A DNA stretch of 59,300 bases, from positions 1 through 59,300 of the forward strand of contig CALXDB010000001.1 of assembly GCA_944386955.1 (NCBI GenBank), written 5' to 3'. The translations under genes and the position numbers were made by a program. The stretch is from an uncultured Oscillospiraceae bacterium (lineage in GTDB: Bacteria; Bacillota; Clostridia; Oscillospirales; Oscillospiraceae). Below the pieces are notes generated by a model. That model saw nothing but the letters and a program-made list of their open reading frames with translations. It was not told the DNA's origin and did no database searches. This document shows positions 4,862-42,231 of this stretch, piece after piece (the stretch's first letter is position 1; each line of letters begins with the position of its first letter).

Positions 4862-4866
4862 CGCAG

Positions 4867-4913
4867 AAGACCGCCTTTGAGGAGGAGATTCCTTCCCAAA
4901 GGCGGTCTTTTTG
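4867..4913. terminator. bidirectional stem-loop between convergent genes
   Basis: AAGACCGCCTTTG ... CAAAGGCGGTCTT followed by TTTT, located between the stops at 4861 (+) and 4932 (-). Confidence 0.6.
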
Positions 4914-4931
4914 CTACTGAGAGAACAGCGC

Positions 4932-6350
4932 TCAGGTGTTGTCCCGGTTAATGGGGCGGCGGACTAGCAGGCGGCCCAGGGCCTTTTTGTCAAACGGACA
5001 GACCGGGTAGAGATAGCCCCGCCCGGCAATGGGCTTGGTGGTAAACAGCAGCACCAGCCACAGCACCATGCCAATGGCAAATCCCCACCAGTCCAGCAGG
5101 GCGATGAGCAGCAGCAAAATCACCCGCATGATCTTAAAGGCGTAGCCCATCTCAAAGCTGGGCTGGGCGAAGGAGGCAATGGATACATAGGCCATATACA
5201 CCAGCACCTCCGGTACCAGCCACCGGGCCTGAACAGCAAAATCTCCCAGGATCAGAGCTCCGATCATGGAGAAGGAGTTGCTCAGCACATCCGGGGTGTT
5301 GAGAGACGCCAGCTTCAAAAGGTCGATGATAAACTCCACCAGGAGGAGCTGCACCAGCAGGGGCACCTGCCCCATCTCCTCCACGGTGATGAACTGGAGC
5401 CAGTCGGGCACGTTATGGGGGCTCTTGGCCAAAAGATACCACACCGGGGTGATAATGAGCGACATGAGAAACACCACCATGCGGATATAACGGAAATAGG
5501 TGCCCACCAGAGGAGGGAAATAGTAGTCGTTTGCCTCCTCCATGAAAGCGAAAAAGTTGGTAGGCAGCAGCATCACTGAGGAGGAGTTGTCCACCAGCAT
5601 TACCACATTTCCCTCCATGATACAGGCGGTAGCCACATCGGGCCGCTCGGTGTAACGCACCTTGGGGAAGGGGTTGTACCACTGCCTGGGCATCATAGCC
5701 TCGGCAATGCTCTCCTGACTCATGGCCACAGAACCCACGTCGATGGCCAAGAGCTTTTCCCGCACCTCCTCCAGCAGGGCCCGATCTACCCGGTCCTCCA
5801 TGTAGGCCAGCACCACATCGGTGCGGCTGCTGCCCCCCACCTGGTGGTTCTCCAGGGTCAGATGCTCGTCCCGGACCCTGCGGCGAATGAGGGATGTGTT
5901 TTTCAAAAGGATCTCCACAAAACCGTCGTGGGAACCCCGGAGGACCCGGCCGTTGGTGGGTTCCTGGACCTCCCGGCCCGGAAACATCTTGGCGTCAATA
6001 AGGGCGCAGCGGCCAAAGCCCTCCAGCAGAAAGCAGGTCTTTCCCAGAAATACTCCGGTGAGAATGGACTCCAGACGGTCCTCCGAGGACACCTCCCCGA
6101 AGGTAACAAAGCGGTCGATGAACCGGTCCATATCGGAGACCGTCCCCATCTGCTCCGCCGTTACCTGCAGGAGGAAGGACAAGATCCGCTCGATGACCCC
6201 GTCATCTCCGTAGCCGTCCAGTACATAGAGCCGGGCCGCCCGGCCCCCCACCGTCAGGTCCCGGGCGATCACATCGAAATTCCGCCCCACGCCGATCCGC
6301 CGGTCCAGCTCCCGCCGGTTCTCCGCCAATACATTGCTCAGCCTCTCCAT
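4932..6350 (-). CDS. spore germination protein, GerA family A-subunit type (SpoVAF/GerKA-like)
   Basis: Soluble N-terminal domain (RNFDVIARDLTVGGRAARLYVLDGY...) followed by a multi-TM C-terminus, which is typical of the GerA family. Start moved to ATG 6350 (MERLSN) with a GGAGG RBS. Confidence 0.8.
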   Translation of the reverse strand: MERLSNVLAENRRELDRRIGVGRNFDVIARDLTVGGRAARLYVLDGYGDDGVIERILSFLLQVTAEQMGTVSDMDRFIDRFVTFGEVSSEDRLESILTGVFLGKTCFLLEGFGRCALIDAKMFPGREVQEPTNGRVLRGSHDGFVEILLKNTSLIRRRVRDEHLTLENHQVGGSSRTDVVLAYMEDRVDRALLEEVREKLLAIDVGSVAMSQESIAEAMMPRQWYNPFPKVRYTERPDVATACIMEGNVVMLVDNSSSVMLLPTNFFAFMEEANDYYFPPLVGTYFRYIRMVVFLMSLIITPVWYLLAKSPHNVPDWLQFITVEEMGQVPLLVQLLLVEFIIDLLKLASLNTPDVLSNSFSMIGALILGDFAVQARWLVPEVLVYMAYVSIASFAQPSFEMGYAFKIMRVILLLLIALLDWWGFAIGMVLWLVLLFTTKPIAGRGYLYPVCPFDKKALGRLLVRRPINRDNT

Positions 6351-11576: not shown

Positions 11577-12233
11577 TTACTGTTTGCTCAGGCGGTACAG
11601 GATCTCCGCCAGCTGTTCTCTGGTGAGGAACATCTTGTACTGCATGTTCCCCGCCTCGTCTCCTTTCAAAAGGCCCGCCATCTCCGCCCAGGCCCGGGCC
11701 TGGGCGCTCCAGCTGCCTGGGGCCTGCTGCCGCAGCTCCTCCAGATAGCCGTCCATCAGTTTGTTGAAGGTCTCCTGGGTCATGGTCTCCTCCTCCTCGT
11801 ACAAGGGCATCTCGCCGGGCAGGCTGCCCGTTAAGATCATGGCGCTGGTCCACACGCCTCGCGCGTCCCACTGGATATGGGGCAGATCGGGAAAGCTCTT
11901 CCAGTCCCCGCCCCAGCTGAATCCCATCTCTTTGGCCAGGGCGGCGGCGGACTGGAAAAAGTCCGGGTCGCTGTACTCCTGTCCTTTCACGTTTTTGCAA
12001 AAATCAAAGGCCAGCCCCACCTTATCGGAGTGGAAAGTGGGTGTGGGGCTGTTGGTGACGATGGTACCTGGGCGGCTGCGGCCCTGCTCATAGAGCCAGG
12101 CCTGGTAAGCGCTGTCCCGCACGGTGCTGGTCACCAGCACCTGCAGTCCCGCAGCGCTGCACCGCTTCAGCCAGATCTTACAGTTGGCCGCCACATCCGG
12201 CCGCAGAAGGTCCACATCTCTGCTGTTCAGCAT
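11577..12233 (-). CDS. peptidase M15 (VanY / L-alanyl-D-glutamate peptidase-type) endolysin with a C-terminal SLH-like wall-binding segment
   Basis: Zn-ligand pattern FHSDKVGLAFDF ... GGDWKSFPDLPHIQWD (H-x-x-G-x-A-x-D ... D-x-x-H). The C-terminus SWSAQARAWAEMAGLLKGDEAGNMQYKMFLTREQLAEILYRL resembles a single SLH-type repeat. Confidence 0.8.
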   Translation of the reverse strand: MLNSRDVDLLRPDVAANCKIWLKRCSAAGLQVLVTSTVRDSAYQAWLYEQGRSRPGTIVTNSPTPTFHSDKVGLAFDFCKNVKGQEYSDPDFFQSAAALAKEMGFSWGGDWKSFPDLPHIQWDARGVWTSAMILTGSLPGEMPLYEEEETMTQETFNKLMDGYLEELRQQAPGSWSAQARAWAEMAGLLKGDEAGNMQYKMFLTREQLAEILYRLSKQ

Positions 12234-12296
12234 AGGGACTCCCCTCTCTCTTTGGTCTCGGGCGGCGTTGCCGCCCTTCTATTCTATGCGCCGGCG

Positions 12297-12596
12297 TTAC
12301 AGCTGCAGCCCCAGCTGCACCAGCACAAAGCCCACCAGCGCCCCCACCGCCATCAGCAGCACCTTGTCCACCACTGTCTCCCAGCGCTGGCCGGGCTTCT
12401 GCTCCAGCACATCTACCTTTTTCGTCAAATTTTCCAGTTCCTCCCGCAGATGGCGCTGTTCGCTGACCAGCACCTCCACAGAGGTGGCGATGTGGGTCAG
12501 CATCTCCTGTCCCCGCTCCAGCTGCTCGATGCGCCGGGTGTTGGACCGAGCCCGGGAGTCGGTCTCCGTCAGCTTCACCGCCGTTGTCTCTTCCAT
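12297..12596 (-). CDS. XhlA-like (hemolysin XhlA family) lysis-associated membrane protein
   Basis: 99 aa. Coiled-coil N-terminal region (RIEQLERGQEML...LREELENLTKKVDVLEQ) plus a single C-terminal TM helix (VLLMAVGALVGFVLVQLGLQL). It sits directly upstream of the endolysin. Confidence 0.6.
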   Translation of the reverse strand: MEETTAVKLTETDSRARSNTRRIEQLERGQEMLTHIATSVEVLVSEQRHLREELENLTKKVDVLEQKPGQRWETVVDKVLLMAVGALVGFVLVQLGLQL

Positions 12597-12602
12597 ATGC
12601 CG

Positions 12603-13169
12603 TCACACCGCCAATTCCAAGGTATGCCAGGTATACCCGGCCGCGTGGATGTCCGCCCAGGTCCACTCCCGCGCCTCCAGCTCCGCCCAGGTGAGGTAGC
12701 GGAAATAGAACTCCGTCTCCAGATGGCAGGGAATGATATCCAGGATCACCTGCCGGATCTGGTCGAACTCCTCCGGGATCCCCGCCACGTTGGGAAAGAT
12801 TACCCGGATGTGGCCCCACTGGTCCGTCTCCTGGGCCTCCGCCTTGATGCCGCAGCCCTGAATGGCCCGGTTCACCGCCTCCAGAGTGAAGCTGTCGCCG
12901 CTGATCTGCAGCAGGGCGTGAATGGCCTCCCGCCGGAGAGGGACGCTCACCTGGACGGGCCGGTGGGCGAAGAGGCTCTCCCGGCGGGAAAGTCCCTCTC
13001 CCTCCGCCGTGGCGGTGACGCATTCCCGCTGGGCGTAGTCCGCTGCATCGGCGGCGCCGTCCAGTCCTGCCCCCATAGCCTCCAGCTCGCTGGCACTGAG
13101 ACTGCCCGCACGGAGGTCATAGATTCCCAGTGGCCGCAGCAGCTCCTGCAAATACGCCGCGTATCCCAT
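12603..13169 (-). CDS. baseplate wedge protein, DUF2313 / XkdU / Mu gp48-like
   Basis: 188 aa immediately after the baseplate J-like gene. The N-terminus YLQELLRPLGIYDL fits the DUF2313 pattern as I remember it. Confidence 0.6.
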   Translation of the reverse strand: MGYAAYLQELLRPLGIYDLRAGSLSASELEAMGAGLDGAADAADYAQRECVTATAEGEGLSRRESLFAHRPVQVSVPLRREAIHALLQISGDSFTLEAVNRAIQGCGIKAEAQETDQWGHIRVIFPNVAGIPEEFDQIRQVILDIIPCHLETEFYFRYLTWAELEAREWTWADIHAAGYTWHTLELAV

Positions 13170-13170
13170 C

Positions 13171-14232
13171 TCAGCCTCCCATCTCCGTTATGGCCACCGC
13201 TCCCAAGGCAGGCAGCCGGGAGGGCAGTGCTGCCACATCCTCGGCTGGAGCGGTGAAGCGGTAGTTTGCCACGCTGTCCAGGGAGTAGAGCAGGTTTCCC
13301 AGTTCCGCCAGAGTCACCGGCTCCCCCAAAAGCTGACCGTCAAAAAAGCCGGCCAGGGCGTCCTCGGCGTCGGCTTTGGCCTGGGAAAAACTGTATCCCG
13401 CAGCCGGTTCCACCGCCGCCGTCACCGCCACAGGCAGCAGCTCCGGCGCCAGCACCTGCAGGTCCACTGCAATCTCCCTGCTTTTTTGCAGGGTCTCCTC
13501 CACCGCCTGGCGCAGCGTCTCCTCCGGTGCACCGGCAGCGGAGGAGATGTACACGTCCACCGTGCCGATGCCCCGTGGACGTCCCACAGCCCTGGCCGCC
13601 GCCACTCCTTCAAAGCGCATGGCCTCCTGCTCGTAGTAGGCGGCATTGGCCCCGTTAGGCAGGCGGCGGTAGCTGTCCAGGATTCTCGTCCGCAGGGCCT
13701 CGTCGTCCTCCCGGTCCGCCCCGCCGGTAAAGGGTTTGGGATTGGTGCACCGGGCCACCCCCGCCGGGGCCACCGCCATCAGCACCACCCGATCAGCCCC
13801 CACATTGCCGCTCTCCCCGCTCTCCGCCGCCTGGGCGGGCACCTCCGTCCACAGCTCCCCCGCCGGGATAGCCCCGTCCTCTAAAGTCTCATACCGCACC
13901 CCGGCGGCGGTCATGCACACCGTGCCCGCCGGGATATTGAGGCTCTGGCTCACCGCCTGGTCCACGGAAAAGCGGAGGACACCCTCCGCGGCGGTGGCGG
14001 CCACTCGTGTGATGTTTCGGGTCTCCCCGTGGTAATCCAGGAATTCCCCCTGGGCCGTCTGGGGGAAGCTCTGGTCCAGCACCCACTTTGCCTGGGCGTA
14101 CAGGGCCTGGACCTGGGCGGCAGCGGCATAGAGCCGGGCCGCCAGATCGCAGGCGGCGTGGGGCCGGTAGCCGGACTGCTGGGCAAAGGTGTCCAGCATC
14201 TCCTGATAGATCTCCTCCAAGGTCTTTTGCAT
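13171..14232 (-). CDS. baseplate J-like protein (XkdT / gp47 family)
   Basis: 353 aa. The position, size and sequence character (EIYQEMLDTFAQQSGYRPHAACDLAARLYAAAAQVQALYAQAKWVLDQSFPQTA) are typical of the Baseplate_J family. Confidence 0.75.
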   Translation of the reverse strand: MQKTLEEIYQEMLDTFAQQSGYRPHAACDLAARLYAAAAQVQALYAQAKWVLDQSFPQTAQGEFLDYHGETRNITRVAATAAEGVLRFSVDQAVSQSLNIPAGTVCMTAAGVRYETLEDGAIPAGELWTEVPAQAAESGESGNVGADRVVLMAVAPAGVARCTNPKPFTGGADREDDEALRTRILDSYRRLPNGANAAYYEQEAMRFEGVAAARAVGRPRGIGTVDVYISSAAGAPEETLRQAVEETLQKSREIAVDLQVLAPELLPVAVTAAVEPAAGYSFSQAKADAEDALAGFFDGQLLGEPVTLAELGNLLYSLDSVANYRFTAPAEDVAALPSRLPALGAVAITEMGG

Positions 14233-14244
14233 CGTCTCGCTCCC

Positions 14245-14598
14245 TTACATGGATATGGTCACTTCCGCCGTCACGGCGGTATCGCCCTGGCTGAGGCAGA
14301 CCCGAAGGGACAGCATCCCCGCCGCTCCCTGCTCCAGTTCCACCGATTCCACGGTTACATCCTCCTCCCCCAGCGCCTCGGCCACATATTGCCGGGCGGC
14401 GGAGAGCCGCCCCTCGGGGGGTTCCCGGCCCAGCAGATACAGCCGGCTGCCCAGTTCCGGCAGCACCGGCAGGCCGCCCCGCCGGGCGGTCAGGCGGAAG
14501 AGGACCCGCTGCAGCAGAGCCTCCTCCCCCTCCAGACGGACCACGCCGCCCCGGCCGTCCGCCACATAGTCTCCCTCGCGCAGCAGCAGTTCCATCAT
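14245..14598 (-). CDS. small baseplate protein, XkdS / DUF2634 (gp25/GPW-like position)
   Basis: 117 aa directly upstream of baseplate J. The motif LLQRVLFRLTARRGGLPVLPELGSRLY resembles the gp25-like fold family. Confidence 0.55.
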   Translation of the reverse strand: MMELLLREGDYVADGRGGVVRLEGEEALLQRVLFRLTARRGGLPVLPELGSRLYLLGREPPEGRLSAARQYVAEALGEEDVTVESVELEQGAAGMLSLRVCLSQGDTAVTAEVTISM

Positions 14599-14611
14599 CT
14601 TCTCCTTCCCG

Positions 14612-14995
14612 TCAGATCAGGGGCGTCAGCTGCACCCCGTTGAGAAACAGCGTTCCTGTGATCTCCACCCGGCCCCGCAGCTGGATGGTCCCATCCAGCC
14701 GCAGCCGGATGGAACTGTCCCCCGCCGTGAAAACCAGCTCTCCCGGCTCCAGGTCCTGCTCCTCCCGGCAGGCGGCAGCCACCACATAGCGCTCCTCGCC
14801 GCCGGTCCCCCCTTTTAAAACCAGCACCTGGTCTCCGGCCCTGGGCCGCCAGACCAGGCCGGCGGGGGCGTAGACGGGCAGGTCCCGCTCCTCGCCGCAG
14901 GTCTCCACCGCCGCCGGCGCCCCGCCGATGGTGGCAGTGCCGGCCTCGGCGGCGGAGGAGCCGCCCCGGGCGCGCAATCGCTCAGATATCCACAT
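14612..14995 (-). CDS. small baseplate hub/spike-like protein (XkdR / gpV-like position)
   Basis: 127 aa. VWRPRAGDQVLVLKGG resembles the OB-fold spike motif. Assignment is mainly by position. Confidence 0.45.
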   Translation of the reverse strand: MWISERLRARGGSSAAEAGTATIGGAPAAVETCGEERDLPVYAPAGLVWRPRAGDQVLVLKGGTGGEERYVVAAACREEQDLEPGELVFTAGDSSIRLRLDGTIQLRGRVEITGTLFLNGVQLTPLI

Positions 14996-15938
14996 GGTCT
15001 CTCGCCTCCAGTATCAGCGTGGTGGTCTCGCCGGCGCTGCCGCCCCGGCTCTCCGCCTCCACCACATCATAATCCCCCGCCAGTCCCAGGGGCTCGTAGG
15101 TCACCCATGCCACATCCCCAGGCTGGGCAGCAAATGCCCCTACCACCGTCATCTCCACCTGGTACATGCCCTCCATGCTCCGCCGGATCTGATACTCGCC
15201 GGTGTACCGCATGGCTGCCAGTGTGCTGATGCCGGGGGTGTAGAGCACCTGCCGCCGGCTGCCGCCCAGGTCCAGAAAGGCCCGGTTCACCACCCGCTGG
15301 GTAGTCTTCCTGGTCTTGTCCTTCACCAGCATCTCGGAGATCACCCCGTATCGGGTGAAGTGGACGGCACAATCCGTCACTGCCGCCGTACGGTCGATGC
15401 TCCGGTGGACGCCGCTGCCCGCCATGGGGCAGACCTGGAGGGTACCGTCGGCGGTAAACCAGGGCAGAAATCCCCCCACATAGCGGACAAAGCCGCTGAG
15501 GGCCTGCCACTGGCTGCTACCGCTGTCCACCCGATAAGCCCCAGCGCAGCGTAGGGCCGTACAATCCCCCAGCGAAATCCCCCAAGGGACGGCGTGATTG
15601 CGGAGAATCTCCTCCACCGTGGCCCCTTGGTACTCCGCCGCTTCCGCCTCGTTGTCCAGCAGCAGCGCCGCCAGTCCCCGGCCGGAGAAAGTCAGCAGGC
15701 GTCCCTGCTCTGACACCTCCGCCCGATACTCATCCACCACACCCTGCAAAACCAAATCGTCTCCCTGATAGGCGGTAAAACGGCAGACTTGAGGCAGCAC
15801 ATCCATCAGCTGTCCGTCAAAGAGGCACACCGCCTCCAGATCGTCGCAGGGGACGCTCCCGGTGCGGCGCAGCCGCCACTCCTTCACCGTGGGAGCCAGA
15901 TATACCTGACCGTCGCAGGCAGTGAGCTGAATGGTCAT
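14982..15938 (-). CDS. XkdQ / late-control gene D-like baseplate hub protein
   Basis: The track ORF was trimmed to ATG 15938 (MTIQLTACDG), which overlaps the LysM gene stop as ATGA. About 318 aa, in the position after the LysM protein as in PBSX-type tails. Confidence 0.6.
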   Translation of the reverse strand: MTIQLTACDGQVYLAPTVKEWRLRRTGSVPCDDLEAVCLFDGQLMDVLPQVCRFTAYQGDDLVLQGVVDEYRAEVSEQGRLLTFSGRGLAALLLDNEAEAAEYQGATVEEILRNHAVPWGISLGDCTALRCAGAYRVDSGSSQWQALSGFVRYVGGFLPWFTADGTLQVCPMAGSGVHRSIDRTAAVTDCAVHFTRYGVISEMLVKDKTRKTTQRVVNRAFLDLGGSRRQVLYTPGISTLAAMRYTGEYQIRRSMEGMYQVEMTVVGAFAAQPGDVAWVTYEPLGLAGDYDVVEAESRGGSAGETTTLILEARDHVDI

Positions 15939-16492
15939 CCCGGGACCACCACCTTCTGCCCCACCTGAATGCGATTGGGGTTGGAGATGGCGGGATTGGC
16001 CGCCAGGATCGCCTCCAGGGTCACGCCGTACCGCCCCGCGATAGCCCAGAGAGTATCCCCCTGAACCACCGTATAAACAGTGCTCGCCTGTTCCGATGCC
16101 GTCTCCGCCGCCGACAGCAGAATCAGCCCCGTGCGGCAGCTGGAGGAGTCCTCCCGGAAAGCGAAACGGTAGGCCACATAGTCCGGTAGGGGCTTTTGTG
16201 TCAGGGCCAGCTCCGTAAAATAGGCGCTGGAGGGCTGCCACACCGGGTGGATCAGCAGTCCCGCCCCCCCGCCGTAGAAGAGGGAGGCCAGCTCCTTGAA
16301 CCGGTCGTAGGCTCCCTCTCCGGCGAAGACCCCCTCTCCCTCCAGCACTCGGGCCATCAGCCCCAGATCCTGGAGGCAGTAGCGTCCGAAGGGCACCTTG
16401 TGTCCCGCCACCAGCCGCTGAAAGGAGATGGAGTAGGTATGGGGGTTGTGGGGCCAGACAAAGGTCTTATACCGCATGGGCGTCAGTTCCAT
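15935..16492 (-). CDS. LysM-domain tail protein (XkdP-like)
   Basis: C-terminal LysM domain YTVVQGDTLWAIAGRYGVTLEAILAANPAISNPNRIQVGQKVVVP. RBS is GAGAGGAGG. Confidence 0.8.
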   Translation of the reverse strand: MELTPMRYKTFVWPHNPHTYSISFQRLVAGHKVPFGRYCLQDLGLMARVLEGEGVFAGEGAYDRFKELASLFYGGGAGLLIHPVWQPSSAYFTELALTQKPLPDYVAYRFAFREDSSSCRTGLILLSAAETASEQASTVYTVVQGDTLWAIAGRYGVTLEAILAANPAISNPNRIQVGQKVVVPG

Positions 16493-16507
16493 CCGTCAAA
16501 CCTCCTC

Positions 16508-16978
16508 TCACAGCAGCGGAAAAGCGCCGTCGTACCGCCGGGCGTCCCGCTCCCACTGGGCGGACAGCTCCCGGGGGCCCACGGCCGTCTCCGTCTCTGC
16601 CGTTCCTGTGGTGCGCACCGTCTCCGCGGTCCCCTGGACCAACCGCTCCAGAGGCACCTCCCGCTCCTGCCGGACACTCTTCCCCGTGTCGATCTCCCGC
16701 GCCTCCCGGACCGCCTCCCCGGGGAGGACCGGCTCCGTCAGCTCCACAGTCCGCCCCTTCGCCTCCGGCTCCCCGGCGGCAATCGTACGGCTCTCCGGCA
16801 GCTCCGGTTCCCCAGCCCGCACCGCCTCAAACCGCGCCATATCGAAGGAGGATGCCTCGCCTCCCTCGGTCCGCTCCTGGACCGCCCTCTGGTCCGCCGC
16901 CTCCAGCAGAGGGGACAAGCGCCCCAGGGCCTCCAGAGGCAGGCGGAAGGTGATCTCCACCAGTTCTCTCGGGTCCAT
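16508..16978 (-). CDS. acidic 156-aa protein occupying the tail-chaperone/tape-measure slot
   Basis: ATG 16978 overlaps the tube gene stop (TGATG). The protein is E/A/R/T-rich (…TAETVRTTGTAETETAVGPRELSAQWERDARRYDGAFPLL). It is the only ORF between the tube gene and the LysM gene. Confidence 0.5.
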   Translation of the reverse strand: MDPRELVEITFRLPLEALGRLSPLLEAADQRAVQERTEGGEASSFDMARFEAVRAGEPELPESRTIAAGEPEAKGRTVELTEPVLPGEAVREAREIDTGKSVRQEREVPLERLVQGTAETVRTTGTAETETAVGPRELSAQWERDARRYDGAFPLL

Positions 16979-17370
16979 CAGGCCACCACTTCCATCCGCT
17001 TTTTGGCCACCACAGACACCTTCTCCGCCACCATAGTCCCCAGCTTGCCCTCCTCGGCGATGGCGTTCCAGTTGCAGCCGCTGTAGATCACCCGGCGGTC
17101 CGGCTTGCAGATCACCAGGGAGAAATCCTCCAGGGTGTAGAAGTCGATGCCGTCGGCAATGGCATCGTCGGTAGCGTAGAGTCGAGTCAGCTCCAGCACA
17201 TACTGGTTCTGGGAGGCGATGGTCCCCACTGGCTCCGCCTCGCCGAAGGCCTCCACCGGGGTGCTGGTGCGGGTGGTTTTGGCGGTGTAGCTCTGGACCA
17301 CCGCCACCTTTTTCCCTTCCAGCTCCAAATAGATGTCGCTGCTGGTGGGAAATCCTGTCACACTTGCCAT
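16978..17370 (-). CDS. phage tail tube protein (XkdM-like)
   Basis: 130 aa immediately downstream of the sheath gene. Beta-rich sequence (IYLELEGKKVAVVQSYTAKTTRTSTPVEAFG...) consistent with XkdM-type tubes. Confidence 0.65.
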   Translation of the reverse strand: MASVTGFPTSSDIYLELEGKKVAVVQSYTAKTTRTSTPVEAFGEAEPVGTIASQNQYVLELTRLYATDDAIADGIDFYTLEDFSLVICKPDRRVIYSGCNWNAIAEEGKLGTMVAEKVSVVAKKRMEVVA

Positions 17371-17382
17371 AGGTTTCCTCCT

Positions 17383-18441
17383 TTATACCGTAATATGGGC
17401 AGTGAGATAGATCTGGTTGAGGCCGTGGGACACGGCAAAGCTGAACTCCACCAGGCACACCGTGGGATCCACGCTGTCGGCCTCCACGCTGACCTCGCCG
17501 TAGCTGTCGATGATCTGGGCCGCCACCTTGTTCTCCAGCTCCACGATCACCTGGGAGCGGATGGCCCCCCGGGTCTGGAGGGTGTTCTTGGTGCGGGTGA
17601 AGCGGCTGCGAAGAGCGGAGCGAACGGCGGGGATCACGTCGTCCACGATCAAAATGGTGGTCAGCTCCCGCCAGGTGGCGTCGGCGCTGCCTCCGGTCTT
17701 GGTACGGGTGGTAATGCCCCGCACCGGAGACACCACGCCTCCCACTGCCTCCAGGGGCGTCACGCCGCCCCGGACCAGGAGGTCGATGTCGTTGTCGCTG
17801 TACCGGACGCCGACGCCCCCCAGCCCCTGGAGCTCCACGCCGTTGAGGGGCACCGCCGGGTCGCCGCTTGCGGCAATGACCCCGGCCACAGCGGCGGCGG
17901 CGAACACGCCGCTGCGGGCCTCTCCCCCCTCGTCGGTGACGTCGGGCCCCACCAGCACCATCCGCTCGCTGTTGAGCCCCTCGGCCCGGGTAATGAGAGC
18001 GGACACGTCCTCGCCGCTGCTGCCCACTACGCCGATGCGCTCCCTTCGGGCGGCGCTGGCGCTCTCCAGACTGGTCCGCAGCAGCTGCTGCACCGTCAGC
18101 TCGCCGCTGTCACACACCACCACCTGGATATCCTCCTCCATGCTGAGGAGGTCGAAGGCGTCGCCGTAGCTGCCGCCGTCGGCCACCCGCACCGCCCGGA
18201 CGGCGGTAACGCCGTTGAGAAAGAGGAGGCGCAGGAGCTCCGCCATGGCCTGGCCCTCCTCATCGGCGCCGAAGGCGGCCAGACCGCCCTCATAGCTGGT
18301 CACCAGCGTCACCTGGTCCGTGTCCCCCTGGGCGGCCTGGGCGGCCACGCCCACCACCTTGGAGGCGGTGCCCCGGCGCACCAGCATCGAGGCGTCGTAG
18401 GAGGAGTACACCCCGGGCCTCTCATGTACGATACTGCTCAA
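17383..18441 (-). CDS. phage contractile tail sheath protein (XkdK-like)
   Basis: 352 aa. The N-terminal ERPGVYSSYDAS and overall pattern are typical of tail sheath proteins, and the tube gene follows. Confidence 0.8.
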   Translation of the reverse strand: MSSIVHERPGVYSSYDASMLVRRGTASKVVGVAAQAAQGDTDQVTLVTSYEGGLAAFGADEEGQAMAELLRLLFLNGVTAVRAVRVADGGSYGDAFDLLSMEEDIQVVVCDSGELTVQQLLRTSLESASAARRERIGVVGSSGEDVSALITRAEGLNSERMVLVGPDVTDEGGEARSGVFAAAAVAGVIAASGDPAVPLNGVELQGLGGVGVRYSDNDIDLLVRGGVTPLEAVGGVVSPVRGITTRTKTGGSADATWRELTTILIVDDVIPAVRSALRSRFTRTKNTLQTRGAIRSQVIVELENKVAAQIIDSYGEVSVEADSVDPTVCLVEFSFAVSHGLNQIYLTAHITV

Positions 18442-18940
18442 AATCAGGCGCTCCTTTCAATTTGAAGTCCAAAAACAGCCCCGGCTCCTCTTGAGCCTGG
18501 GCCACGAAGGCGGCGGTGCACTGGAGGAGGGCGGCCTGTCGAATGTGCTCCGTCTCCCGGTCCCAGCCCGCCGCTTCCCAGATCATTTCCCCGGGGCGGA
18601 GCCCCTCGGCCAGTCCCGCCAGGAGGGCGTCGTGAGCCTCCTCCAAAACGGCCGTGCAGCCCGCCGCCCCCTCCGTTCCGGGGCCGTAGGCCGTCAGCTC
18701 CACACTGACCTCCAGCCGCCGGCCGTATACCTCCCGCCAGGTGGCAGTGTCCGCCTCATAGGCCAGCCCCAGATAGTCGCAGAGGGCGGCGCTGGCGCTG
18801 TCGGCCCGCCGCAGGCCCACCACGATCACCGGTCGGTCATACTGTCCCGCCCACTGTGGCTCCCAGGCGGCAGCCGCGGGAATGTCCGCCGCCGCGAGGC
18901 ACCGCAGCACCTCCCGGCGCACCTGTTCCAGTCCGCTCAT
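18422..18940 (-). CDS. head-tail joining / tail-completion-like protein (hypothetical)
   Basis: The track ORF was trimmed to ATG 18940 (MSGLEQVRRE), which overlaps the preceding stop as ATGA. 172 aa, located between the connector genes and the sheath. Confidence 0.45.
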   Translation of the reverse strand: MSGLEQVRREVLRCLAAADIPAAAAWEPQWAGQYDRPVIVVGLRRADSASAALCDYLGLAYEADTATWREVYGRRLEVSVELTAYGPGTEGAAGCTAVLEEAHDALLAGLAEGLRPGEMIWEAAGWDRETEHIRQAALLQCTAAFVAQAQEEPGLFLDFKLKGAPDFEQYRT

Positions 18941-19260
18941 TCCGCCGCCTCCCTCTCCGTCCGGAGAAGGCCGTGCCAGTAGAGCACCGCCTCCCCCAGG
19001 TACACCGGCGTGGCGGACAGCACCCGAAAACGCTCCCCGCCGCACTCGACTACATCGTGGCGGAGCAGGGTGGTGCCGCCGGGGCCGATGTAGACCCAAC
19101 GCCGCTGGTCCACCGCTCCCAGAGGCGTAGCAGCCACCGGGTCCTCTCCGCCGCTGGTCTGGGGCTGCACCGAGGCCTGAAGGACGATCTGTTCCTCTCC
19201 CCGCCACAGCGTCACCCGCTGGCCATAGGCGGCAAAGAACCGCTCCAGCCGTCCCCTCAT
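18937..19260 (-). CDS. head-tail adaptor / head-closure-like protein (hypothetical)
   Basis: Trimmed to ATG 19260 (MRGRLERFF), which overlaps the preceding stop as ATGA. 107 aa. Assignment is by position. Confidence 0.45.
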   Translation of the reverse strand: MRGRLERFFAAYGQRVTLWRGEEQIVLQASVQPQTSGGEDPVAATPLGAVDQRRWVYIGPGGTTLLRHDVVECGGERFRVLSATPVYLGEAVLYWHGLLRTEREAAE

Positions 19261-19607
19261 CCCGGCACCCCCACGAAGGCAAAGCCATCGCCGCCGCAGT
19301 AGGGGGCCATGATCTTCCAGGCCTGGCGGCGCATCCGCGACGCGGTGTCGCTCCAATTCCCGCCGCCTACGGACACATCTCCCACCCGGACCGCACCGGT
19401 CTCATTCCGGCCGCCCGTCAGATTGGCGGCAGCCAGCCAGGCGGCGGCGCAGAGGAACAGGTCCGCGCAGTCCTCGGCCGTCACGCCGTCCCGCAGGGCG
19501 GAGCGGAGCTCCCGCTCCGCTCCGGCGCACAGCCGCCACAGCACGCCCTCCTCCGCCTCTGTAGGCGACGCCAGGGCCTTTGCAATGGTAAAGATCTCCT
19601 CGGTCAT
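19257..19607 (-). CDS. gp6-like head-tail connector protein
   Basis: 116 aa directly after the MCP gene. The helical N-terminus (TIAKALASPTEAEEGVLWRLCAGAERELRSAL) is as in gp6-like DNA-packaging/connector proteins. Confidence 0.5.
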   Translation of the reverse strand: MTEEIFTIAKALASPTEAEEGVLWRLCAGAERELRSALRDGVTAEDCADLFLCAAAWLAAANLTGGRNETGAVRVGDVSVGGGNWSDTASRMRRQAWKIMAPYCGGDGFAFVGVPG

Positions 19608-19646
19608 CTTCCCAGCCTCCTTTTGTTGTGATGATGGTCCCTCCCG

Positions 19647-20678
19647 TCAGATCTCCAGCACCCGGGAGGCGTCCTGGAAAAGCTTGGCGAAGCCGGAGAT
19701 GCAGGTGATGGCCGCCCGCTCCAGCTGGCGGTCAATGAGCTTGTCGTACTCCACCTGCACCTGGCCGCCGGTGACCATCTCCAGCGCGTAGTTCTTGTCG
19801 AGACCGATGAGCTTGCCCTTGGGCATGGCCCCGGTCCGCAGCAGGCGTGCGCCCAGGGGGGTGGTCAGGGCGCCGGTGCCCTGGAAATTGAGGCCGGTGA
19901 GAGGATTTTGGAACTCCTCCATCTTGAGAAGCTGCAGCATCACGTCGCCGCCCACCAGAAGGGTATTCATGGTGTAGGGATCAAACTCCCCCCAGAAGTC
20001 CAGCAGGGCGCCGTAATCCAGGGTCCCCTTGGTGCCGGAGATGGGTTCCGTGCCCACGGTATAGCTCTTGGCGGCGTTGTCGTTGCCGTCGCCGTCCATT
20101 ACCACAGAGATGGCGTCCTCCAGCTGCATCCGGGCGATGTGTCCGCCGATCTGGCGGAGGGTCACAGAGAAGAGGTCCAGCCGCTGGAAGCGGATGGCCT
20201 CATAGGAGGCCACCAGCATCCGCCCCCGCTTGTGGAGCTTCACCAGGTTCTCCTGGGTCCGCACCTGGGTCTGGGGCAGCTGACCGCCCTCCTCCACCCG
20301 AGCCAGACGCTTGTCCTCCTCGGAGGGCACCGAAGCAATGGAGCGGTAGTCCCTGCCGTCAAAGGTGGTAACCGCCGCAGTGATGTGGGGCAGGACGTTC
20401 TCCTCCTCCATGCCCTGGCGCACCACCCGGGCCACAAACTCCGGGAACAGCACGGCGGACTCGGTGGTGTGGAAGAACTTCTCCACCATGTCGCTGCCGC
20501 TGCCCTTCACATGGATGTCAAAGCGCTTGAGCTGGCGCTGGAAGGCGTCCAGTCCCTCCATGGGGGTACCCCGATAGGCCTCGCTGGGGTCACAGGCCTC
20601 CAGCACCTGGGAGAAGGTCTTGCCGGCCTCGCCGTACATCCCCTTCTCCAGCTTCACGTCATTCAGAAGATATGCCAT
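19647..20678 (-). CDS. phage major capsid protein
   Basis: 343 aa from ATG 20678 (MAYLLNDVKLEKG), RBS AAAGGAGGAG. Follows the protease/scaffold and decoration-like genes. Sequence character is typical of HK97-fold capsid proteins. Confidence 0.75.
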   Translation of the reverse strand: MAYLLNDVKLEKGMYGEAGKTFSQVLEACDPSEAYRGTPMEGLDAFQRQLKRFDIHVKGSGSDMVEKFFHTTESAVLFPEFVARVVRQGMEEENVLPHITAAVTTFDGRDYRSIASVPSEEDKRLARVEEGGQLPQTQVRTQENLVKLHKRGRMLVASYEAIRFQRLDLFSVTLRQIGGHIARMQLEDAISVVMDGDGNDNAAKSYTVGTEPISGTKGTLDYGALLDFWGEFDPYTMNTLLVGGDVMLQLLKMEEFQNPLTGLNFQGTGALTTPLGARLLRTGAMPKGKLIGLDKNYALEMVTGGQVQVEYDKLIDRQLERAAITCISGFAKLFQDASRVLEI

Positions 20679-20698
20679 GTTCGTCTCCTCCTTTTTTC

Positions 20699-21034
20699 TC
20701 ACAGCAGCACCGTGACGGTCTGGGCGGTCTCGTCAGTCTCCACCACCCAGCGCTTCACGCCGCTCTCGTCGCTCTTCACGCCGCCGCTGCCGTTGGCGCT
20801 GAGGCCGGTAAAGCCCACGGCAGGCGCGCCCTCGCTGTAGCCCACCGTCACAAAGCCGCCCACCTGCACGCTGACCGCACCGTCTCTCCCGGACACTGCC
20901 ACACCGCAGAAGGCCTCTCCCGCGCCGCAGGCCGCCACCGTCTGAGCCCCGCTTACCTTCACCACGCTGCCCTCGGGGATGTCCTCCCCCAGGAAGGTGG
21001 CGCACCACTGCCCAATGCCGTTAAAAGATACCAT
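20699..21034 (-). CDS. small Gly/Val-rich head protein (DUF2190 / decoration-like)
   Basis: 111 aa between the protease/scaffold and MCP genes. The beta-rich G/V/A composition resembles DUF2190-type head proteins. Confidence 0.4.
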   Translation of the reverse strand: MVSFNGIGQWCATFLGEDIPEGSVVKVSGAQTVAACGAGEAFCGVAVSGRDGAVSVQVGGFVTVGYSEGAPAVGFTGLSANGSGGVKSDESGVKRWVVETDETAQTVTVLL

Positions 21035-21055
21035 GTTCCGCTCCTCCTTTGTTTG

Positions 21056-21949
21056 TTACACCAAAAATGCCTCGCCGCTGTCGCTTCCATGGCCCCAGCC
21101 CAACTGGGGACCGGGCCATCTCCGGCGCTCCAGCCGCTTTTTCAGCACCCGGGTCAGCTCCAGCAGCTCCTCTTCCTCCATGCGCTCCGCGGCTCTGGCG
21201 AAAATGGCGCAGTCCAGATCCTCCTCCGCCAGTCCCGCCAGGCGCACCAGTTCCTGCCGCAGGGCCGCCAGATAGCTCCGACCGGCGGCGGCCTCCTTTT
21301 CCAGCTGAAGCCGCTCCCCCTGGTCAAAACCCCGGTACACCAAGGTCTTCTTCAAAACCCCTGCCTCCCGCTGGGCGGGCACCGCCACAAAGGACCACTC
21401 GTAGGCGTCGGTGGGGTCCTCCAGAATGGCGGTGCACAGCTTGCCGTCATACTGCCGGCCGGGTACATGTCCACATTGGGAAATCTCCCCGCCGCATACG
21501 GAGCACACCCGGCGGGCCACCGCACAGCCCACGCTGACCTCCTTTTTGATCCCGCCCTCGATCTCCTCAATGAGCGCCTGGTTCTTTTCGGAGCGGAGCA
21601 TATAGGCCCAGCCCTTCAGATACCGGCAGGGCTCCCCCGCCATGGTCATCCGCCCCGGCTCCTCGGCCACCTCCGTCCGGTAGATCCGGGCAGTCTGCCC
21701 GGCGGCAGACCACTGGTGGTCAAAAATGCCGCTCTTGCCTACAAACAGCTCTCCCAGCCTCTGGAGGCAGTCGAGAGAAAACCGCTCAAAATCCCGGTCC
21801 ACCTCGTTGTCGCACAGCCGCAGGGCGAAGGTGTACACCTGCTCCGCCGTCAGCTCCCCCTTGGCAAAGCGGTTGATCTCCGCCAGATCCGCCTCGGTGA
21901 CGCCGCCGTACTCCACACCGCCTGTTTTTTTCACATCCGTCACTGTCAC
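21056..21949 (-). CDS. prohead protease-like domain fused to a coiled-coil scaffold-like C-terminus
   Basis: The GTG at 21949 overlaps the portal stop (GTGA) and has a GGAAGGG RBS. The N-terminal roughly 200 aa are globular (FALRLCDNEVDRDFERFS...GIFDHQW...). A Cys4 knuckle is present (CAVARRVCSVCGGEISQCGH). The C-terminus is helical and E/L/R-rich. Confidence 0.55.
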   Translation of the reverse strand: MTVTDVKKTGGVEYGGVTEADLAEINRFAKGELTAEQVYTFALRLCDNEVDRDFERFSLDCLQRLGELFVGKSGIFDHQWSAAGQTARIYRTEVAEEPGRMTMAGEPCRYLKGWAYMLRSEKNQALIEEIEGGIKKEVSVGCAVARRVCSVCGGEISQCGHVPGRQYDGKLCTAILEDPTDAYEWSFVAVPAQREAGVLKKTLVYRGFDQGERLQLEKEAAAGRSYLAALRQELVRLAGLAEEDLDCAIFARAAERMEEEELLELTRVLKKRLERRRWPGPQLGWGHGSDSGEAFLV

Positions 21950-23139
21950 AGCTTCCCTTCCATCTGAAGATTTTCCAATTCCAGCTTCCTCGCCTGCTGT
22001 CGGTACCACTCCGCCTTGGCCTCATCCAGCTCATCCTGGAGGTTGATGTCGTCCCACAGCACCTCAAAGGGCTCATAGATCCCATTGAGGCGCATCCACA
22101 TCCGGCAGATTTTCTCCACCACAGGGGTAAGCCCCCGGCGAATGGCTGTCAGCTCGGAGGTAAGGATGTCCGCCTGCTGGGTGCTCATCCGCTCCGTGGA
22201 GGACCAGCTGAGCCCCAGCATAAAAGGCGGAATGCCGGTCTTGGCGATGAGCTGCTCCAGGATCTGCCGCACCGGCACCTCGCTGTCGAGAATCTGGTTG
22301 TCCGCGCCGATGACCCGGATGTCCACATCTCCGATGGCCACAAAATCCCGGACGCTGCCAGTTTTGGAGCTCTGCATGGCCCGGCTCCACTCCCTGGCGA
22401 TCTGCCGGCTGCGCTCCTGAGCCGTGGCCGGGTCCATCTCTCCGCTCTGAGGCTTGCACACCACGGCAAACCGGACGTTGCCCATCCGCTCCCAGTTGGC
22501 TCCCATAGCGGTGAAGATCTTCCCCAGAAGCTCCGTCAAAAAGGGCATGGACCGAAGCATGGACACCCCATAGGGGCTGTGGGTCTCCGGATTGTAGGGG
22601 GTAAAGAGGAGCAGATCCTGCCGGGGCAGCGGCCGCGGCATGCCATCGCTGCCGTAGCCCCAGAGGGTAAAATCCAGAGGAGAATCCCCCTCCCGGATCT
22701 GCACATCCTCCACCCTTCCGCAGACCAGAGCGGCGATGTCCCGGCCCTCCGGGTCCACCACCATCTCCCCCACCGCCTGACCGAAGGTGAGCATGGAGTC
22801 GAGATACATGTCCAAAAAGGCATTGATCCCCACCTGCCCCCGACCGGCGGGCACGGTTTTGAGGAAGCGGTCCATCTGCCGCTGAACACTCTGGGTCGCA
22901 CAGTCCACCGTCACGCCCCCGGCCAGCCGGATGATCTTGCAGAGGGCGGCGTCCACCGCCGGGACCCCCTGGCGGATGGCCTGATAGAGCCGGGCCTCCC
23001 CGCCTCCCAGGGGGACCATATCCATGAGGCCTCCCCAGGGGAGGGCGTCCCGGCTGCGCAGCTGGGTGGAGGCCGCCGCCACCCCCTCCTCCTTTCGTTT
23101 GAAAAACGCCATACTGTTTCCATCCTTTCCTGTACTCAC
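21946..23139 (-). CDS. phage portal protein
   Basis: About 390 aa directly downstream of TerL. Start is either GTG 23139 (a GTGA overlap with the TerL stop) or ATG 23112. Size and position are typical of a portal. Confidence 0.75.
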   Translation of the reverse strand: MSTGKDGNSMAFFKRKEEGVAAASTQLRSRDALPWGGLMDMVPLGGGEARLYQAIRQGVPAVDAALCKIIRLAGGVTVDCATQSVQRQMDRFLKTVPAGRGQVGINAFLDMYLDSMLTFGQAVGEMVVDPEGRDIAALVCGRVEDVQIREGDSPLDFTLWGYGSDGMPRPLPRQDLLLFTPYNPETHSPYGVSMLRSMPFLTELLGKIFTAMGANWERMGNVRFAVVCKPQSGEMDPATAQERSRQIAREWSRAMQSSKTGSVRDFVAIGDVDIRVIGADNQILDSEVPVRQILEQLIAKTGIPPFMLGLSWSSTERMSTQQADILTSELTAIRRGLTPVVEKICRMWMRLNGIYEPFEVLWDDINLQDELDEAKAEWYRQQARKLELENLQMEGKL

Positions 23140-24389
23140 CGCTCTACCGACACGGCGGCAAAGCCATCCCCCCGGAAACTCCCCGCCACTGTAGACGCAA
23201 AATACCGCATGTCGTCCATGGCGTGGTCATTTTGTTTCAGGGGGACCTCCCTGCCCTGACCGCCGGCCTCCCAGCAGTAGAGGGCCATTTCCCGCAGGAG
23301 ATCCCGGCAGGGCCGGCAGATCACCAGCCTGCCGCTTTTGAGAAGCCCCGCTGTCAGGCGGATGCCCGCCAGCACGTCGTTGGCCGCCTTCACCACGGGA
23401 AAGCCCTCCCGGCGCAGGGCGGTGATAAAGCTGGCGGCGGAGGGGTCCACCACCACCCGTCTCAGCTGCCGCCCCGCCGCCAGCCGCCGCAGGTCCGCCA
23501 CATACTCCTGGTCCGTCTTTTGTACACCGGTGTCCCGGGAAGCGTAGTAGTACTCGTCCACCCGATACCACACCCCATCCCGCAGCCCCCATAAACCAAA
23601 CGAGCATGGGTTGGCGGTGCCGTAATCGATGGAGACGCAGTACTGCTCCAGCTCCCCCTCCGGCACCGGCTGTACCATTTCCTCCGGGGAAAAGAAATCG
23701 TAGATGAGCCCCTCGGCCGCCGACCACTCCCCCAATACGAACCGGCGGTAGAACGCCCCGGAGTAGCGGTTTTCATACCGCCGCCGCATAGCGGGAGAGA
23801 GGCTGGGATTGTCGGCCATGGTGAAATGAAGGTAGAGGGCGTTTTTCTCCTCCGCGCGGCAGATCCACTCCCGGTAAAACCAGTGCTGGGGCCCCTCGGG
23901 GTTGCAGTTGAACCACAGCCTGCTGCCCTCGACGCTGCACCGTGCCAGGGCCTGCTCCACGAAGCTGCGGGGCATGAGGGCCACCTCGTCCATCAGCACC
24001 CCGGCGAAGGTAGCGCCCTGGATCAGTGCCGCGCTGCCCTCGTCCTTGCCGCCGATGAGATGAAAGAGGTTTTCATGTCCCTCTCCCCGGACCACCAGCT
24101 GATTGGCGCTGCGCCGCTCGGTGACGCTGAGCCCCAGCTCCCCCAGCAGGGGCGTCAGCTCATTCACCAGATTGCGCCGGAGGGAGACGATGGTCTTTCC
24201 GCACAAGGCGAACTGCCGCTGATGAAAGGCGGCGGTGGCCCAACAGAAAAAGCTGAGCCCCATGGCCAGGGTCTTGCCGCTTCTGACGGCCCCGTCACAA
24301 ATGATGGCCTCTCGGCGGCTGTCCTCCGACCCTGGGCACCACCACAGCAGCACCCTCTTCTGCTTTTCGGAAAAGCTGTGGATTCTCAC
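23136..24389 (-). CDS. phage terminase large subunit (PBSX/XtmB-type)
   Basis: Walker A-like [10 protein letters not shown]. ATPase motifs (LMDEVALMP) and a C-terminal nuclease-like region (SIDYGTANP ... DHAMDDMRY). Confidence 0.9.
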
Positions 24390-24670
24390 GCGTTCTCCCC
24401 TCCGCCAAGCTGCTGAAGGAAATCCATCAGTCCGCCGCCCCCCTGTTCCCCCTCCAGGGCCAGCAGCAGCTCCAGGGCCTTGGTGCGGTCAAAGAACTTC
24501 AGCTCCATAGCGCCGTTGGCATGGCACTTGAATTCCGCCACCCCCTCCAGCCTCAGCTTCCGGATATCCACGCCCTCCTCCATGGCCAGGCGGATGGCGT
24601 CGTTGGGCCGGTAGAAGGCCAGCCGCTCCAGAAGTCCGATCAGATCCTCCCGGCTTTTTCTCCTGCTCAT
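24386..24670 (-). CDS. truncated terminase small-subunit-like protein (C-terminal part only)
   Basis: 94 aa from ATG 24670 (AAAGGA RBS). [30 protein letters not shown] matches the conserved C-terminal block of Firmicute-phage TerS proteins (…iKl.DKlkALElLgk), recalled from memory. No N-terminal HTH segment is present. The stop overlaps the TerL start as ATGA. Confidence 0.55.
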
Positions 24671-24709
24671 GTACTCATCCTTTCCAACCCCGGGGGCTGC
24701 GGGGAAAAA

Positions 24710-24728
24710 ATTGCACGAAAACGTGCAA
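24710..24728. promoter_or_regulatory. perfect 7-4-7 palindrome TTGCACG-AAAA-CGTGCAA upstream of the phage-like cluster
   Basis: Read directly. It lies 40-58 nt upstream of the TerS-like ATG, inside the divergent ridA/cluster intergenic region. Confidence 0.3.
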
Positions 24729-24767
24729 CCAAAAATTTTCTCCGGCGGCCTGCCGCCCCTCTCTCCA

Positions 24768-24795
24768 TTGACATTTCGAAGCAATCTGGTACAAT
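24768..24795 (+). promoter_or_regulatory. near-consensus sigma-70 promoter for ridA
   Basis: TTGACA (24768-24773), a 16-nt spacer, then TGgTACAAT (extended -10, 24787-24795), 35 nt upstream of the ridA ATG. Confidence 0.55.
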
Positions 24796-41384: not shown

Positions 41385-42229
41385 GCAAGCAGTATCCTAA
41401 GCCCAAGCTGGTGCCGGTGCCCAGCACCAACATCATCCCCGAGCGGGATGTGGACAAGAGCCCCATCCTGGAGTGCCGCCACCTGGGCATCGACTTCGGC
41501 GGTCTCAGCGCCGTCAGCGACTTCAACATGGCCATTGGCCGCACGGAGATCGCCGGCCTCATCGGCCCCAACGGCGCAGGCAAGACCACGGTGTTCAACC
41601 TTTTGACCAAGGTCTACCAGCCCACCCGGGGCACCATCCTGCTGGATGGGAAGGACACCCACTCCATGACCACTGCCCAGGTCAATCGGGCGGGTATTGC
41701 CCGGACCTTCCAGAACATCCGTCTCTTCTCCAAGCTTAGCGTGGAGGACAACGTGAAGATCGGCCTGCACAACCAGGCGACCTATCCCATGTGGAGCGGG
41801 ATCTTCCGTCTGCCCTCCTACTGGCACAAGGAAAAAGTGGCCCACGAGATGGCCCTGGAGCTCCTGAGCATCTTTGACATGCAGGACCTGGCGGACCACC
41901 AGGCCGGCTCCCTCCCCTACGGTGCCCAGCGCCGTCTGGAGATTGTCCGGGCCCTGGCCACCGGCCCCAGCCTCCTGCTGCTGGACGAGCCCGCCGCGGG
42001 CATGAACCCCTCGGAGACGGCGGAACTTATGGACAACATCGTGAAGATCCGGGACACCTTCCAGATCGCCATCATGCTCATCGAGCACGACATGAACCTG
42101 GTCATGGGCATCTGCGAGGGCATCTGTGTTTTGAACTTCGGCAAGATCATCGCCAAGGGCACCCCCGCCGAGATCCAGGCCAACCCGGCGGTGATCGAGG
42201 CGTATCTCGGTAAGAAGAAGGAGGCGTGA
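41381..42229 (+). CDS. livG: ABC transporter ATP-binding protein (LivG-type)
   Basis: Walker A GPNGAGKTT, signature LPYGAQRRLEI, Walker B LLLLDEPAAGM. Confidence 0.9.
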   Translation: MSKQYPKPKLVPVPSTNIIPERDVDKSPILECRHLGIDFGGLSAVSDFNMAIGRTEIAGLIGPNGAGKTTVFNLLTKVYQPTRGTILLDGKDTHSMTTAQVNRAGIARTFQNIRLFSKLSVEDNVKIGLHNQATYPMWSGIFRLPSYWHKEKVAHEMALELLSIFDMQDLADHQAGSLPYGAQRRLEIVRALATGPSLLLLDEPAAGMNPSETAELMDNIVKIRDTFQIAIMLIEHDMNLVMGICEGICVLNFGKIIAKGTPAEIQANPAVIEAYLGKKKEA

Positions 42230-42231
42230 GT

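Follow-up and report, generated by a model that had tools for sequence, protein, structure and literature searches.

How is the length of a contractile tail set when the place of the tape measure and its chaperones is held by one small acidic protein? The combination of a long helical tape measure with a frameshifted chaperone pair is a highly conserved rule among tailed phages, in which a separate G chaperone coats the long, aggregation-prone tape measure. The locus considered here, from an uncultured Oscillospiraceae bacterium (GenBank assembly GCA_944386955.1, contig CALXDB010000001.1, positions 1 to 59,300; this whole analysed stretch of 59,300 nt is called the window below), belongs to a family that appears to bend this rule stepwise. 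We lean, by a small measure, towards reading the protein in this slot as a miniaturised chaperone/tape-measure derivative, which would both start the tube and, without help from a chaperone, act as a mini ruler, the tail being about 15-35 nm long. No published description of the slot family or of its host cluster was found.

Gene content of the host cluster

The slot is part of a head, contractile-tail and lysis cluster of 13.2 kb on the minus strand (11577..24784), recognised by Pfam and PHROG matches and collinear in 80 species loci. The head part comprises, in order, genes for the small terminase, the large terminase, the portal, a 317-aa and a 111-aa protein, an HK97-type capsid protein and three connector-sized products. 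The small-terminase position is occupied by a 132-aa ORF, the counterparts of which in two related loci (L038 and L001) match Pfam Terminase_2. The tail part continues with the sheath, the putative tube, the slot ORF, a LysM/DNA_circ_N protein, a gp44-like hub, a 127-aa protein, a gp46/W-like protein, Baseplate_J and a Mu gp48-like protein, and the cluster ends with a 99-aa membrane protein and then an M15 lysin. The 99-aa protein (12297-12596) combines a coiled coil with a C-terminal membrane segment and is possibly holin- or XhlA-like. The M15 lysin is found at the same position in just 25 of 80 related loci, and a strong terminator-like hairpin with a 15-bp stem (11564-11532) lies downstream of it. 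No tail-fibre or receptor-binding gene was found after the Mu gp48-like baseplate gene (window positions 11577-13169).

The neighbours of the slot, all on the minus strand, are identified with varying certainty. The tail sheath gene (17383..18441, 352 aa) matches Pfam Phage_sheath_1 and Phage_sheath_1C. The gene on the other side of the slot (15935..16492) encodes a LysM/DNA_circ_N hub-proximal protein similar to Mu gp43 and P2 gpU/gpX (Pfam LysM, E 1.9e-17, and DNA_circ_N; PHROG baseplate hub, GpU-like), and the next one (14982..15938) a gp44-like baseplate hub of 318 aa (phrog_177, E 1.6e-33; Pfam Gp44-like_2nd). The gene that follows the sheath gene (16978..17370, 130 aa) is called the putative tail tube gene on the basis of its position, its size, a strong match to the uncharacterised phrog_27038 (E 4e-60) and a beta-rich, low-confidence model. 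Indeed, no Pfam or PHROG profile names the 130-aa protein as a tube, its AF2 model from a single sequence is beta-rich and unreliable (pLDDT 40.6), and a PDB sequence search with the tube family profile returned chance-level matches only.

The cluster is flanked on one side by CstA, LytR, an SLH protein and GerA, and on the other by RidA, the his operon, kinases, transporters, hydrogenase and ATP synthase. Beyond the cluster, the scan of the window covered ORFs of about 250 aa and longer, and neither an integrase nor a replication gene was found in the window. A 396-aa ORF between transporter and hydrogenase genes (41917-43107, minus strand) exhibits a moderate third-position GC of 0.72 and no Pfam match; it may be a spurious or an uncharacterised gene.

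Between the window and the related locus L167, synonymous divergence rises from 0.06 in the sheath and tube genes to 0.45-0.60 in the slot, LysM and hub genes. The jump suggests a recombination breakpoint at or near the tube/slot junction (position ~16978), the baseplate-proximal half of the cluster having been exchanged as a mosaic.

A single open reading frame in the slot

The space that separates the putative tube gene from the LysM hub gene is wholly taken up by one ORF of 471 nt, i.e., 156 codons and a stop (16508..16978, minus strand), which we read, from the ORF, its sequence and its homologues of 156-210 aa, as a fused T-module/mini tape-measure protein of the type called III below. 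Its ATG and the TGA of the upstream 130-aa gene overlap by one base (TGATG), and the LysM gene starts (16492) 15 nt past its stop, with a GAGGAGG ribosome-binding site before it. The product is acidic (pI 4.67; 32 acidic versus 21 basic residues), rich in E (16.7%), A (12.2%), R (12.2%), L (9.6%) and T (8.3%), and contains no long hydrophobic stretch. The remaining minus-strand frames of the slot hold ORFs of 29-64 aa only, and the plus-strand ORFs are Arg/Pro/Ser-rich shadows. The original prediction had described the sole coding capacity between the tube and LysM genes as one 156-aa ORF rich in E, A, R and T, without transmembrane segment and without a useful second frame, and it proved correct on each of these points when the frames of both strands were checked.

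A hidden frameshift in the window slot was ruled out, since the alternative frames do not exceed 64 aa and the A-rich slippery heptamer used by relatives is absent. The hallmark of a chaperone pair, two overlapping ORFs with a -1 frameshift at a slippery heptamer, is thus lacking in the window slot and present in the type I relatives described below.

A word-indexed search returned 13 homologues of the slot protein with lengths of 156-210 aa and identities of 49-99%, in the alignment of which the first 28 and last 20 residues are nearly invariant and the middle varies in length. To judge from these 13 homologues with their invariant ends, the slot ORF is a genuine coding sequence. An exhaustive profile search of 1.84 billion representative proteins gave 36 relatives, all of 60-282 aa and none of them a long tape measure. 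The slot protein has no match in Pfam or PHROG, and its family profile found none in a PDB sequence search. Searched by tblastn against 50,697 phage records, the slot protein had no match and the tube protein matched two unannotated virome contigs only.

Three slot architectures among related loci

With the tube protein as bait, 492 stretches were recovered from the species-representative bacterial genome set, nearly all labelled Oscillospiraceae, in genera that include Oscillibacter, Dysosmobacter, Flavonifractor, Intestinimonas and Pelethomonas. Relatives of the tube protein were also present in 195 IMG/VR contigs, many of them about 13-14 kb long. The core from terminase to gp48 was collinear, with fixed spacing, in 80 of the 80 genome loci examined out of the 492 tube matches, and the impression given by the original prediction of a peculiarity of one locus does not hold. 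In the cultured Oscillibacter valericigenes Sjm18-20, the genome of which is complete, the cluster lies between transporter genes and SOD/PheT, and no integration or replication genes were found in its surroundings. Similarly, the locus L003 has the same RidA and LytR/SLH/GerA neighbours as the window, with a slot protein that is only 54% identical. In one of the two virome contigs, L001 (GenBank MT835769, 'Bacteriophage sp.', 18.6 kb), the cluster is preceded by genes for thymidylate synthase and dihydrofolate reductase (3819-5194), and phage replication genes are lacking; the record probably represents a piece of bacterial chromosome that was carried along when virus-like particles were prepared.

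Both the tube and the LysM gene are present in 152 loci, in which the length of the slot ranges over 425-1447 nt, the 486 nt of the window being among the shortest. None of the 152 holds a long tape measure in the slot, and the concern that relatives might carry one where the window has a short ORF is not borne out among them.

The slots fall into three types. In type I, a slot of about 1.1-1.4 kb holds a chaperone ORF of ~140 aa, a T extension of ~85 aa and then a mini tape measure of 160-260 aa. The ~140-aa ORF ends in ...ALKKAWST and overlaps the ~85-aa ORF at CTA AAA AAA GCC, a perfect A_AAA_AAA -1 slippery site that is found in L124 (10381-11009), L001 (16034-16683), L163, L081 and others. 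The extension reads ...SLEHTPEERLRWRVL...CPxC...CxxCG...N.SFDxxRFxxLKRGE, and the mini tape measure ends in RDARRYDGGF. The CPxC...CxxC motif of the extension resembles a zinc ribbon, a feature that we do not know to have been described from the T part of any tail chaperone. Judged by this arrangement, type I is the canonical G / G-T / tape-measure layout with a miniature tape measure, and it is the frameshift pair immediately before the mini tape measure that tells which gene of the slot is which. Among the cultured carriers, strains of Intestinimonas and Flavonifractor represent this type. In type II, an ORF of ~100 aa with a G-like start ends directly in FDxxRF and is followed by a mini tape measure of 107-275 aa; O. 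valericigenes Sjm18-20 belongs here, with 104 and 193 aa. In type III, to which the window belongs, the slot holds one ORF of 135-299 aa.

When the G, G-T and mini tape-measure proteins of these relatives were scanned against Pfam and PHROG, no tape-measure or chaperone family was returned. Their sole profile matches were weak ones, of the T part to a double-zinc-ribbon family and of one G-like ORF to an uncharacterised PHROG (E 0.0039). A motif of the ERDARRYDGAF type stands in the last slot ORF of most loci.

In a neighbour-joining tree of the sheath and hub proteins, types I, II and III form three contiguous blocks, the type III block containing about 38 loci, which indicates that each slot type is stably inherited. 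A recent deletion specific to one strain was ruled out, the single-ORF state being typical of a whole clade.

Modular structure of the slot protein

Three modules may be distinguished in the slot protein, all given here on the minus strand. The N-terminal module (residues 1-56; 16811..16978) consists of a conserved strand and helices and is supported by hhalign to T, invariant columns, AF2 helices and dN/dS; it includes the motif SFDMARF (residues 44-50; 16829-16849). The middle linker (residues 57-131; 16586..16810) is rich in E, P, A, T and G, variable in length and predicted from pLDDT to be disordered. The C-terminal module (residues 132-156; 16511..16585), supported by hhalign to the mini tape-measure family and by an AF2 helix, combines this helix with ERDARRYDGAF (residues 143-153; 16520-16552). 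Mini tape-measure proteins have this end in common with it, and the module presumably serves as the anchor in the hub.

For hhalign, the query was a profile built from 35 type III proteins, the one of the window among them. It matched the mini tape measure over the C-terminal 57 columns (probability 98.2%, E 3.6e-14), the C-terminal half of the ~100-aa type II ORF (probability 90.5%, E 1.3e-6) and the T extension (probability 87%, E 4e-6), with window residues 1-58 aligned to T positions 28-97, and it gave no match to the G part (probability 0.2%). Similarly, tblastn on the window placed the T matches near 16800 and the mini tape-measure matches at 16500-16600, with none of either elsewhere in the window, and G proteins matched nowhere in it.

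By its shared C-terminal end, the slot protein is tape-measure-derived, and a short tail is to be expected from this match to the proteins that hold the tape-measure position in relatives. For the N-terminal end, the string ASFDMARF is identical in the window family and in the T extension of L001, and the zinc ribbon (CPxC...CxxC) is absent from the module of the window. The hhalign support is moderate here, resting largely on one short motif, and we hold with moderate confidence that the N-terminal module is homologous to the C-terminal part of the T extension, minus the zinc ribbon. The original prediction had the chaperone missing; its T part, which relatives encode by frameshift, rather appears to be fused to the N-terminus of the slot protein.

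The AF2 model of the slot protein, built from 14 sequences, has a mean pLDDT of 58, with helices at residues 15-38, 47-56 and 135-150. The pLDDT is below 50 over residues 63-101 and 112-131, and residues 63-131 are without confident structure. The middle linker is predicted on this basis to be disordered and of low complexity, which does not agree with the helical ruler that had been assumed.

Compared with what defines a tape measure, the slot ORF lies between the tube and LysM/hub genes and is homologous, in its C-terminal 57 columns, to the protein that follows the G/GT frameshift pair in relatives. It matches no curated family (Pfam, PHROG, PDB, exhaustive HMM search), and with 156 aa and three AF2 helices it is not a long, mostly alpha-helical protein of several hundred residues. 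Compared with what defines the chaperones, it is homologous to the T part, with the SFDxxRF motif in common, and not to the G part. We therefore read it as a variant of the known tape-measure/chaperone system, descended from such a system and lying outside the curated families.

Selection and length variation

Estimates of dN/dS were obtained from pairings of the window with three homologous loci. Values of 0.07-0.31 for the sheath, tube, LysM and hub genes point to strong purifying selection. Within the slot protein, values of 0.09-0.36 were obtained for the N-terminal module and of 0.34-1.02, almost neutral, for the linker; the C-terminal 25-residue window is less clear (0.32-0.72), and its end motif is nearly invariant in the alignment.

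The linkers of homologues carry insertions of 28 and 54 aa. In the 210-aa allele of L170 (543-718), a 39-nt tandem repeat is present in 4.5 copies and encodes a 13-aa unit of the form AGEPELLQSQEAA, which accounts, at least partly, for the 156/184/210-aa length series; the only tandem repeat of the window ORF is a weak 11-nt array. The slot ORF is open in all relatives and its length changes are in-frame. Such substitutions and insertions are the pattern of a working protein in which the ends are under constraint and the spacer is constrained in its composition, and not that of a pseudogene. Length variation by repeats is frequent in tape measures. Close relatives, the sheath and tube proteins of which hardly differ, have slot proteins of 135-299 aa, and this two-fold spread is odd for a precise ruler.

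Proposed mechanism and alternative readings

In the reading that we favour, the C-terminal helix and ERDARRYDGAF would be the remainder of the tape measure, seated in the hub (the LysM/gp43-like and gp44-like proteins) and nucleating tube polymerisation. The N-terminal 56 residues would descend from the T extension, covalently joined to the tape measure, and this module would recruit or terminate tube subunits. The linker between them, about 75 acidic, proline-rich and disordered residues, would run through the tube lumen, and its reach would cap the number of tube/sheath rings. With the tape measure shrunk to a soluble, acidic, disordered chain, the G coat would no longer be needed; the fusion of T in cis to a short tape measure would thus make both the separate G chaperone and the frameshift dispensable. 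Hub anchoring, tube recruitment, the ruler function, the tail length and the formation of particles are what we infer from these genes.

Helices rise by 0.15 nm per residue, and a ring is roughly 4 nm high. The 156 residues would correspond to about 23 nm if they were helical (156 x 0.15 nm), and the 100 residues beyond the T module to 15 nm as a helix and to at most about 35 nm as a fully stretched chain. A range of 15-35 nm would accommodate about 4-9 rings of roughly 4 nm. The original prediction had considered the protein as a possible ruler, a part that is strengthened by the match of its C-terminus to the tape-measure proteins of relatives; its conversion at 0.15 nm per residue stands as a lower bound only, because the middle is predicted to be disordered.

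The two-fold spread in length, with slot proteins of 135-299 aa among relatives whose tube proteins are 76-96% identical, would be more readily understood if the slot protein were a tether or plug. Its ends would then bind the hub and the tube top or terminator, the channel would be closed until firing, and length would be set otherwise, by terminator kinetics or sheath-tube cooperativity, leaving the linker free to drift. The nearly neutral linker (dN/dS up to 1.0) and the predicted disorder of the middle fit such a protein as well. However, the linker is kept open-reading and compositionally uniform and is altered by whole repeat units, and no other length determinant is evident in the cluster. 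To our knowledge, the protein in the tape-measure slot is the length determinant in every characterised long-tailed phage or phage-derived contractile particle, which also speaks against a tether. Lambda is one of these (PMC5009743). On balance we consider the tether or plug rather unlikely.

We give little credence to the idea of a pure assembly chaperone, similar to XkdN or gpG, that is not incorporated into a machine devoid of tape measure like the type VI secretion systems. The slot protein is indeed small and acidic, is encoded directly after the tube gene and has an N-terminal part related to the chaperone extension; it nevertheless shows no similarity to the G part and has no frameshift partner, and its C-terminal end is the one conserved, in relatives, in the ORF that comes after the chaperone pair, in tape-measure position.

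That the slot ORF is a decayed deletion remnant in a dying prophage, a copy making no tails, is hardly probable either: the slot is among the shortest of its range (486 nt within 425-1447 nt) and has lost the G chaperone and the zinc ribbon, but the single-ORF layout is intact across a clade of species-level genomes, the 13 homologues, some with as little as 49% identity, have invariant ends, the flanking structural genes are all intact and under purifying selection, and the chromosomal neighbourhood is kept in L003 despite its divergent slot protein. Finally, a long tape measure may be encoded elsewhere in the genome, as the original prediction had envisaged, but no second tape-measure candidate and no G chaperone were found elsewhere in the window by ORF scan and tblastn.

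Comparison with known systems

In lambda, G binds the tape measure and the T part of the rare frameshift product G-T recruits the tube subunit (PMC5009743). The genes of lambda gpG/gpGT and gpH, and those of P2 gpE/gpE+E' and gpT, occupy the same position after the tube gene, and the frameshift logic of the lambda/P2 type is found in the type I relatives (A_AAA_AAA). The window protein would keep, from such systems, pieces that descend from the T part and from the end of the tape measure. Unlike lambda and P2, the window lacks a G part, a frameshift and a second ORF, its T module being fused in cis; its protein has 156 aa against several hundred to >800, with a disordered acidic rather than helical middle and no profile-level match.

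The particle of RcGTA, a domesticated chromosomal capsid with a short tail, has a tape measure of about 216 residues and five tube rings (PMC7296036). With it, a short ruler is already known from a particle that has been domesticated. The RcGTA tail is non-contractile, whereas the window cluster encodes a sheathed tail, and RcGTA g11, a largely helical ruler, has a 113-residue helix and a beta-rich part without fused chaperone module, whereas the window protein is shorter and largely disordered. No sequence relationship between the slot protein and RcGTA g11 was detectable, the relatives found by HMM search all having 60-282 aa and bearing no names.

PBSX of Bacillus subtilis is a Firmicutes element that packages host DNA, in which genes for sheath, tube, chaperone, tape measure, LysM protein and baseplate follow each other (XkdN/XkdO/XkdP). 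The window cluster presents the same gene order. Both the tape measure and the tail of PBSX are long, whereas in the window the pair of chaperone and tape measure is replaced by one 156-aa protein, and no tail-fibre gene comes after the baseplate genes.

In contractile injection systems, the way in which length is set depends on whether there is a protein in the lumen, as with the Afp14/Pvc14 rulers and the ruler-less type VI systems. Extracellular contractile injection systems and type VI systems are sheath-tube machines too, but without a capsid, whereas the window operon includes terminase, portal and capsid genes; no sequence link to them was found (Pfam, exhaustive HMM search).

A candidate gene transfer agent of gut Oscillospiraceae

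The head, tail and lysis genes are chromosomal and without integration or replication genes in the window, in O. valericigenes and in L003, and they are collinear in 80 species. With this gene content, the 13-kb cluster looks like a domesticated element similar to a gene transfer agent (GTA). Recent virome studies describe GTA-like packaging from the Oscillospiraceae Onthomonas and Pelethomonas but could assign no genes to it (PMC12946183; bioRxiv 10.64898/2026.07.08.737213), and PBSX has been discussed as GTA-like (PMC12946183). The cluster is present in Pelethomonas genomes (L018, L021). It is a candidate gene set for the reported packaging, a lead and not a demonstration.

A bolder proposal, which we put forward tentatively and with more doubt than conviction, brings these elements together. 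A clade of gut Oscillospiraceae would possess a domesticated capsid with a contractile tail shorter than any known. A disordered acidic chain of 135-300 residues would determine the length of this tail, with a tube-recruiting chaperone domain fused in cis, i.e., a chaperone-free and frameshift-free 'entropic' ruler. The family would keep three stages of the transition, from the G/GT frameshift with mini tape measure, through an in-frame G-T' with mini tape measure, to the single fused ORF, and the cluster would be the gene set behind the reported Oscillospiraceae GTA-like packaging.

In the reading favoured above, the tails of the hundreds of gut Oscillospiraceae species that harbor the cluster should all be unusually short. 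The family bears on whether a disordered chain can measure length and on how short a contractile tail can work, and its natural variants and cultured carriers, such as Oscillibacter valericigenes, bear on the roles of the G and T parts. If the GTA gene cluster were found, gene flow in this abundant family of the gut could be approached by experiment.
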